Assembly: GCA_951406725.2 (NCBI GenBank)
Contig: OX597816.1
Location: 92,380,001 to 92,444,000 of the forward strand
Reading direction: 5' to 3'
Length of the DNA stretch: 64,000 nt
From: Octopus vulgaris
Lineage: Eukaryota
The position numbers were made by a program, and so were the translations under genes. Of this stretch, positions 40,301 to 41,789 are shown in pieces. Position 1 is the stretch's first letter; the number at the start of each line of letters is the position of its first letter. The notes under the pieces were generated by a model that saw nothing but the letters and a program-made list of their open reading frames with translations, ran no database searches and was not told where the DNA came from.

Positions 40301-41343
40301 GTCTGTGTTATTAATAAATTCAATGCACATAGATACAGACAATTTCTGAAAATAGAACATCAATCAATAACAGTTAAATTTCCATAATTAAAAACAATGT
40401 ATATGCTCTAATAAAAAATTGTTTCACTTATTTGAGCTCATCTTTTCAAAATTATATTTTATATTTACTCACATAACATTTCTTCTTAGAATCATTGAAT
40501 TCTATAAACAATTCTACTGATTAGATAATGCCAGAGTTTGGTGCAACGGTTTATGTTGGTAGATATCTTCAAGAAAGTTTCTTTGGTTTAGAAACAAGAC
40601 AGATCATCAATTTTGGTAAATAATGTGAATTAAGCTGAAATTAAGTAGTATAGAATTACTTCATAATTATTAAGAATTTCTTATTAGAATTTGTATTTAT
40701 ATTACTTTCCACACCGTATAGAGCAAACGATATTAAAAGACGATATAGTATTTTGTTACATTCGATGACAACCTGATTGCTAATCCCACCGAAATCGACT
40801 TTACGTTTCGTCCTTTTAGCTTCAATAAACTGACTACCAGTCAAGTAAAACTTGTTACAGTATTATTGCAACGAAGATAATGCAGTAGGGCATAGATTCC
40901 ATTGTTGGCGGGTTATCTTGATAAAATAATCAACATCACACTAGAGAGCATTGAAAGACAAACTAGACTGAAAAACTAAAAACAAAAATGATTAACAATA
41001 ATGTAGCTAAACACATAAGAATGTATTAACTATAAATTCGATCTTAAAACTCTTTTCTGTGAATCAACAGAGTATAATTAATTTAATAATGATCTAATAT
41101 AAAAAAAAAATTGCCCATAAGGGTAAAGCTATTCCATTTATTATCTACATATACATGATCTTACTGTAATCTTACCTTTATCTGAGTAGCTACAATGGAT
41201 AACACTACGTGTTTGAATGGTACCAAACTATGTCTATACATGAAGTAAACAATTTTCTCTAGTACAGTTCTATATTTAAGAGGTGAGGAATTATATACAT
41301 TATTCACATTTGACGGATATTTGTCCTCATCTTGTTTGTTGTT

Positions 41344-41389
41344 AACACAACGTTTCGGCTGATGTGCCCTCCAGCCTTCATCAGGTGTC
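41344..41389 (-). ncRNA. minimal type I hammerhead ribozyme motif, family A (best-preserved copy)
   Basis: GACAC-CTGATGA-A-GGCTG gagggcacat CAGCC-GAAA-CGTT-GTGTT: intact core, perfect 5-bp stem II, stem I GACAC/GUGUU, palindromic AACGUU. Confidence 0.75.
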
Positions 41390-41669
41390 TTAGGGAAATT
41401 TTGAACCTGGGTTCTCATTCCTAAGGTATTTTTTGATATTATTATTATTCAGGGACCTGAATAATAATAATAATAATGATGATGATGATGATGATGATGA
41501 TGATGATGATGATGATGATGATGATAATAATAATAATAATAATAATAATAATAATAATAATAATAATAATAATAATAATAATAATAATAATAATAACAAC
41601 AATAACAACAACAACAACAACATCGAAAGATACCTTAGGAATGAGAATCCAGGTTCGAAAGTTCCCCGA

Positions 41670-41715
41670 GACACCTGATGAAAGCTGGAGGGTATATCAG
41701 CCGAAACGTTGTGTT
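41670..41715 (+). ncRNA. minimal type I hammerhead ribozyme motif, family A
   Basis: GACAC-CTGATGA-A-AGCTG gagggtatat CAGCC-GAAA-CGTT-GTGTT; first stem II pair mutated. Confidence 0.6.
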
Positions 41716-41789
41716 AACAACAAAGAAGATGGGCAAATATCCGTCAAATGTAAATAATGTAAATAATTTTCTCTAGCATAGTTCTGGCT

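Follow-up and report, generated by a model that had tools for sequence, protein, structure and literature searches.

Head-to-head pairs of a tRNA-headed Penelope/Poseidon-type end repeat in Octopus vulgaris: counts that favour priming on both target strands

Introduction

How do two copies of one repeat come to lie head-to-head inside a single target-site duplication (TSD)? The question is raised by a stretch of 64,000 nucleotides from the 2.8 Gb genome of Octopus vulgaris (the window), in which a repeat here called family A forms such an inverted pair at two loci. A sequence-only reading of this DNA had proposed that each pair is one integration event with both target strands primed on element RNA, and had linked the arrangement to Penelope elements (PLEs). 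Inverted pLTR layouts have already been published for PLEs (Arkhipova 2013, PMC3846280; Craig 2021, PMC8557442), and the origin of inverted, tailed PLE insertions is called unresolved in PMC8557442. For the PLE PAc, cleavage and extension of both strands in vitro have been reported, with reverse transcription beginning at two internal positions that delimit the tail (Frangieh 2024, PMC11167929).

Two inverted pairs in the window

Both pairs are enclosed by flanking repeats that have no further match on either strand of the window: AATTTTCTCTAG has exact copies at 41251 and 41765 and nowhere else, and ACTGACGATAT at 8323 and 10623 and nowhere else (Table 1). The arms of locus 2 meet bluntly at 41453/41454, and the ORF N-terminus of its left arm reads MRTQVQNFPKTPDEG...KYRTV. 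At locus 1 the head has a deletion of a few nucleotides relative to other copies, and its 5′ end coincides with the genomic pile-up of 5′ ends described below; this pair spans 2.3 kb because two later elements occupy the (AAT)n of the right arm. The left arms end in ...AAATATAGAACTGTA and ...AACTAT, and the right arms are 30 and 28 nt shorter at the 3′ end, or 26-27 nt when the element is credited with the letters that it has in common with the TSD. The long left and short right ends noticed in the sequence-only reading are thereby upheld, and its offset of about 25 nt was slightly low.

Table 1. Family A features and later inserts in the window (positions count from the first letter of the window).
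Feature	Position	Strand	Description
Locus 1 left TSD	8323..8333	+	ACTGACGATAT, 11 bp
Locus 1 left arm	8334..8769	-	near-complete tRNA-like head, (AAT)n, ORF N-terminus, long end
Locus 1 28-nt tail	8334-8361	-	at the long end of the left arm
Locus 1 left-arm hammerhead motif	8414-8459	-	
Locus 1 tRNA-like head	8700..8769	-	A box 8748-8758, B box 8713-8723
Locus 1 right arm	8769..10622	+	GACCTG, (AAT)n with two inserts, ORF start 10502, short 3′ end
Later insert in locus 1 (AAT)n	8845..9660	+	non-LTR retrotransposon 3′ fragment
Later insert in locus 1 (AAT)n	9880..10437	+	young ~555-bp repeat; 98% copy at 61262-61786
Locus 1 right-arm hammerhead motif	10531-10573	+	small deletion
Locus 1 right TSD	10623..10633	+	
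Locus 2 left TSD	41251..41262	+	AATTTTCTCTAG, 12 bp
Locus 2 left arm	41263..41453	-	final 4 nt of head, short (AAT)n, ORF N-terminus, long 3′ end
Locus 2 30-nt tail	41263..41292	-	unique to the left arm; spans the gap between two presumed RT start sites (by comparison with PMC11167929)
Locus 2 left-arm hammerhead-like motif	41344..41389	-	minimal type I, by eye
Locus 2 right arm	41454..41764	+	GACCTG (head end), (AAT/GAT/AAC)n, ORF start 41641, short 3′ end
Locus 2 right-arm hammerhead-like motif	41670..41715	+	
Locus 2 right TSD	41765..41776	+	
Third copy	63461..63627	+	5′-truncated head and (AAT)n; no inverted partner seen

Several further observations concern the internal structure of these copies. 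Both short-end arms in the window (8769 and 41454) start at the same head position, GACCTG, which is possibly a junction hotspot at the border between head and (AAT)n. At 10438-10484 the tract switches from (AAT)n to (TTA)n right before the body, a small local inversion. The third copy has its body, with a long end, past the window (L311:3364-3536), separated from the head by a LINE within the tract. The insert at 8845..9660 carries a zinc knuckle and a PD..D nuclease-like motif (zf-RVT, E 7.8e-6, under the cut-off) and is presumably R4/Dong-like. LINEs of this presumed kind recur in family A (AAT)n tracts, in the window (8845-9660 and 63628-64000), at L311:628-3324 and at L086, L097, L100, L102, L125, L127, L134 and L136; they are 84-97% alike, and one is nearly 2.7 kb long. 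The young ~555-bp repeat likewise occurs in such tracts, with up to 98-99% identity, at L089, L096, L109, L112, L125, L136, L144 and L147.

Family A as the pLTR of a Penelope/Poseidon-type element

The unit consists, in order, of a tRNA-like head, (AAT)n and the first ~51 codons of an RT-endonuclease ORF with a minimal hammerhead motif; the body is the N-terminus of this ORF, and the window copies translate as MRTQVRNFPKTPDEG...SLKYRT. Immediately upstream of the head, L112 and L237 carry an RT together with a nuclease region of GIY-YIG-like CCHH type. In L112 the GIY-YIG-like region comes after the RT (Pfam RVT_1, E 1.9e-10 on L112:3-722), and a stop is reached ~40 nt short of the head; in L237 the RT motifs are present, with frameshifts and stops. 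By eye, the C-terminal nuclease stretch of both reads YSIPCxCGxxYKGET ... HxWxxxxH, and Pfam gives no match on L112:993-1223. A search with the RT piece yielded 152 matches, and 70 loci were examined; L239, whose hit lies in a doubly inverted arrangement, was dropped, leaving 69. The head is placed after the ORF end in 41 of these RT-bearing loci, and the body continues into the ORF in four (L237, L271, L276 and L303); the longest open frame among the matches listed has 569 aa. L237 is full-length: it has a short arm in inverted orientation as well as a long end, and its 12-bp TSD is perfect. ORF-bearing pairs in general have a TSD in 9 of 20 cases and combine a long with a short end in 17 of 20.

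The element thus shows the layout by which PLEs are recognized, namely a pLTR that follows the ORF and includes its start, together with an inverted, 5′-truncated copy, a tail and a TSD. A CX2-5CxxC linker between RT and EN, which marks Neptune/Nematis according to PMC8557442, is absent from the L112 and L237 translations, and by this criterion the element is grouped with Penelope/Poseidon. On the basis of this order and coding content, family A is the pLTR of a decayed Penelope/Poseidon-type element, and the Penelope link of the sequence-only reading therefore extends beyond a SINE with PLE-like behaviour.

Other assignments were considered and dropped. A LINE-driven SINE was set aside because the whole unit, head included, belongs to an ORF-bearing PLE, and the idea of a free-standing SINE that depends on an as yet unseen PLE was abandoned once the RT-EN ORF was seen upstream of the L112 head. 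Family A copies do start at the 5′ end of the head, as those of SINEs do; they are not separate from an autonomous partner, and their 3′ end does not come from a LINE. Non-LTR retrozymes consist of tandem hammerhead monomers, whereas the window loci and most of the 90 anchor loci described below are inverted pairs or singles. Family A is SINE-like in behaviour and is classed as a Penelope/Poseidon-type PLE with short pLTR derivatives. In the 50 of 148 loci checked, a search for an autonomous partner via Pfam GIY-YIG led to other PLE families, whose 3′ regions had no family A match. Notable among them is an unrelated, young Neptune-type PLE (L209:948-3291), which recurs at many sites in the genome with an intact 781-aa frame; this frame contains the linker, and the 3′ region is long and made of tandem repeats.

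The hammerhead-like motif

The motif within the ORF start comprises a stem I of GACAC/GUGUU, CUGAUGA, a bulged A, a stem II, GAAA, a palindromic CG and UU, as read by eye. Core and helices, assigned by eye together with an MFE fold of L026, fit the criteria for minimal PLE hammerheads in PMC4209133: a short helix I, a long helix II, a bulged base after position 9, G10.1-C11.1 and palindromic positions 15.2/16.2. Family A differs from this minimal type in having U at N17. Dual hammerhead motifs 100-700 bp apart on opposite strands are described for PLEs in the same source. The pLTR accordingly carries a hammerhead-like motif of the minimal PLE type; Rfam called neither tRNA nor hammerhead over the window and L210. 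Four arms have 5′ ends at body positions 87-89, the hammerhead cut site, a number indistinguishable from chance or from an effect of neighbouring palindromes.

Pairing and target-site duplications beyond the window

A DNA search with family A returned 41 scored matches, and the 30 loci inspected show two 3′-end classes and frequent inverted partners. For counting, an exact 38-mer from the hammerhead region served as anchor; it has 1281 matches in the genome, compared with none for a reversed control, and the 90 loci examined represent the first 92 of these matches, all on C1. An inverted partner with its 3′ end at most 1.6 kb away is present at 56 of the 90. Mapping the 3′ endpoints of these pairs gave the same two classes: 48 combine a long with a short end, three are short+short, three long+long and two unresolved, so that 48 of 54 resolvable pairs are mixed (p 3e-9). 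The short end scatters over ~9 nt and the long end over ~4 nt. A TSD score of at least 9 was found for 35 of the 56 pairs and for 13 of 600 re-paired flanks (Fisher p ~1e-32), with 21 pairs scoring below 9; in the 34 long+short pairs with a TSD, its median length is 12 bp and its A+T content 82%. The expectation of the sequence-only reading that inverted pairs share a TSD more often than chance would allow is borne out, and these TSD statistics support a single-event origin of the pairs.

The remaining 34 anchors, those without a complete partner, include nested-insert copies, partial partners and true singles; at several of them nested inserts in the (AAT)n displace any partner beyond the sequence stretch examined. 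An unselected 400 kb sample contains four bodies, too few for statistics; this density and the 1281 exact 38-mers together suggest that family A has roughly 10^4 arms. The mean identity of copies to the majority sequence is 90.8% and the best value 94%, and by this measure the PLE family is decayed. Two structural observations may be added. A 9-nt unit, AAATAATGT, is present in two to four copies at body ~125-150, in frame, and includes the short 3′ end. The family A pair at L130 has within it an inverted pair formed by a different tRNA-headed repeat.

Within pairs the arms diverge by ~9%, close to the value for random copies (9.1 vs 9.9%). Private variants common to both arms number 19 compared with 10.4 expected; the excess amounts to 12 vs 6.2 at CpG sites (P 0.004) and to 7 vs 4.2 elsewhere (P 0.10). 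Variant sharing between arms is thus slightly above random, a weak signal, and sequence alone is insufficient to prove one template molecule.

The tRNA-like head and two proposed classes of RNA

The head contains both an A box and a B box. Its best match among 25 distinct tRNAs from 30 loci, a set that covers 7 isotypes, is a genomic tRNA-Arg(TCG), with agreement at 46 of 74 positions (z 9.3); ARAGORN calls no tRNA in the window or in 31 loci. Among 151 arms, 82 reach the head. Their 5′ ends, derived from BLAST and accurate to a few nucleotides, fall at -10..+14 in 42 cases (29 of them at -1..+8) and inside the head in 31; three end in the next ~300 nt upstream and six beyond. How often an arm passes the head start depends on its partner, with 10 of 14 doing so where the partner arm bears an ORF vs 7 of 42 otherwise (Fisher p 3e-4), the two sets having been ascertained differently, by RT search and by the hammerhead 38-mer. 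The pile-up sits on a short imperfect palindrome, TGCCC-AC-GGGCA, which could itself favour junctions. The pile-up and the partner-dependent passing suggest that the RNA is of two classes, one long and the other short and beginning at the head; the same counts point to both arms usually deriving from the same class.

The sense strand has 0.47 runs of T4+ per kb and no run of T5+ in 46.6 kb of copies, and a 2.1-kb majority sense strand has no T4+ run, compared with mostly 1-8 per kb in other PLE frames. The P values for this depletion are 0.03 under a mononucleotide null, 0.17 under a Markov null and 0.16 and 0.75 under synonymous nulls in two frames, the copies being one family and hence non-independent; against fair nulls, T-run depletion is a weak argument. 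Together, the boxes, the 5′ pile-up and the scarcity of T-runs are indirect signs that tip the balance slightly towards Pol III transcription from the head. Aligned to L229, two contig sets and one RNA run labelled with a different organism show equal depth in both mate directions, a skipped repeat part and no pile-up of starts, and are uninformative for promoter and strand.

How the pairs may arise

We consider it probable that the pairs are short pLTR copies, each made in one event in which both strands were primed at two fixed sites on the RNA. A GIY-YIG-type nuclease would cut an AT-rich target, with the two strands staggered by ~12 bp. Two RTs would then begin synthesis, one from the 'long' and the other from the 'short' site, ~26-30 nt apart on the RNA, each on either strand; both cDNAs would extend toward the RNA 5′ end and be joined head-to-head, bluntly or by short microhomology. 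For most short pairs the template would be a short RNA whose 5′ end lies at the tRNA head, likely driven by the A/B-box (Pol III) promoter, with the pLTR acting as its own SINE, and both arms would usually be of the same RNA class, most simply copies of one molecule.

An alternative to priming on both strands is fold-back, in which a cDNA or antisense RNA folds at a palindrome and copies itself, and a nuclease trims one end and so leaves the tail; self-priming has been proposed for rotifer PLEs (PMC3846280), and 'EN-mediated resolution' is the term used in PMC8557442. Several junctions do coincide with short overlaps or with the imperfect palindrome where the head begins, and the excess of shared CpG-site variants would also fit. 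However, fold-back predicts a fixed relation between the tail and the reach of an arm, and the farther-reaching arm carries the tail in no more than 18 of the 40 short pairs that could be resolved (8 ties were left out) and in 9 of 17 ORF-bearing pairs; in the other 22 and 8, respectively, the tail belongs to the arm with the shorter 5′ reach. As a folded-back cDNA cannot gain a tail that is absent from its template, the placement of the tail on the 5′-shorter arm in about half of the pairs disfavours this mechanism, while the near-even split suggests that both arms were primed on RNA, each from its own start site and on either side. Some junctions are blunt, some show an overlap of a few nucleotides and others contain short extra letters; many of the blunt or extra-letter ones, that of locus 2 included, are away from palindromes. 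These counts favour two-strand priming over fold-back, which we regard as improbable. An origin of the arms from separate insertions, by a LINE-driven SINE or a PLE striking the same spot twice between flanking repeats that match by chance, is barely conceivable: the arms are indeed nearly as far apart as random copies, a divergence that is attributed to old age, but such insertions would account neither for the TSD excess and the mixed 3′ ends nor for the fixed head-to-head orientation. The proposal that each pair is one event with both strands primed is in keeping with the TSD excess, the long/short pairing and the tail positions alike.

A further alternative leaves the insertion mechanism unchanged and concerns the head, which would be a passenger, for example an old SINE piece in a UTR, while the 5′ pile-up would reflect RT pausing, RNA processing or initiation by Pol II within the pLTR. 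Known PLE promoters lie within the pLTR (PMC8557442), a head followed by (AAT)n resembles a simple SINE, and the statistics for terminator avoidance are weak. Against this, the pile-up is found just upstream of intact A and B boxes, and a pure RT pause cannot account for pass rates that differ as much as 10 of 14 and 7 of 42. In type-2 promoters, transcription starts just upstream of the A and B boxes. We therefore hold a passenger head to be unlikely, if a serious contender. Two-strand priming may also be embedded in a wider proposal, that a captured tRNA (Pol III) promoter serves both as master promoter and as a self-standing SINE, that Pol III terminators were lost from the ORF and that two RT subunits copy one RNA onto both strands. 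This proposal is tentative and falls short of probable; if true, family A would be a protein-coding retroelement transcribed by Pol III and would document, on the scale of a genome, the still unexplained step of PLE integration.

Comparison with known systems

Two-strand priming has a parallel in L1 twin priming, where both target strands prime cDNA and an inversion within one TSD results. The arms produced in this way copy adjacent, non-overlapping parts of the RNA, whereas family A arms copy the same region from two fixed starts. An octopus SINE bears the name 'Twin'. The word 'Twin' does not occur in PMC13282606, and the present reading of family A is not described in the available portions of PMC13282606 or PMC8967140.

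The rotifer elements Pen2a_Av and Pen2_Av (Adineta vaga; PMC3846280) resemble family A in having direct pLTRs with an adjoining inverted pLTR, a TSD around the whole (9-10 bp; 9 bp for Pen2a_Av), a 31-bp tail at one end only, the first ORF codons in the pLTR and a palindrome at the pLTR 5′ end. They differ in that TATA/Inr-like motifs are reported instead of a tRNA head and in their low copy number, and their authors favour self-priming, which the tail distribution of family A disfavours. Poseidon_Ac (PAc) of the green anole (PMC11167929) has, like family A, a hammerhead where the ORF begins and two sites of RT initiation in the 5′ region of the ORF (111-118 nt into the ORF, compared with ~120-130 and 152-156 nt in family A); cleavage and extension of both target strands, AT-rich targets and a predicted dimer are further points in common. 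No tRNA head is seen in PAc as presented there, and the joined inverted product with its TSD is not part of the in vitro demonstration.

The nearest precedent for a Pol III promoter combined with a hammerhead is Sm-alpha of schistosomes, which, like Sj-alpha, unites a Pol III-type promoter and a hammerhead in one short repeat (PMC6765202). Their units are arranged in tandem and released by cleavage, and that source mentions no master with an ORF, whereas family A is the pLTR of an autonomous-type PLE and forms inverted pairs. Animal non-LTR retrozymes (10.64898/2026.07.22.740005) are also non-coding, hammerhead-bearing and related to PLE pLTRs; they are tandem arrays by definition, unlike the inverted pairs of family A, and their main text makes no mention of tRNA. 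A PLE with a tRNA-type head in its pLTR was not found in the literature covered, mostly without subscription papers and Repbase reports, and a curated Repbase consensus could already hold family A. The inverted pair, TSD and tail are known features; what is new is modest, namely counts that discriminate between models and a tRNA-headed pLTR.

Perspective

With some 10^4 arms, family A allows competing models of PLE insertion to be counted against each other. A tRNA-type promoter in the pLTR of a PLE would blur the boundary between SINEs and PLEs, and if the pLTR promoter is indeed of the tRNA type, this would suggest that some repeats currently annotated as tRNA SINEs may be the end repeats of PLEs.
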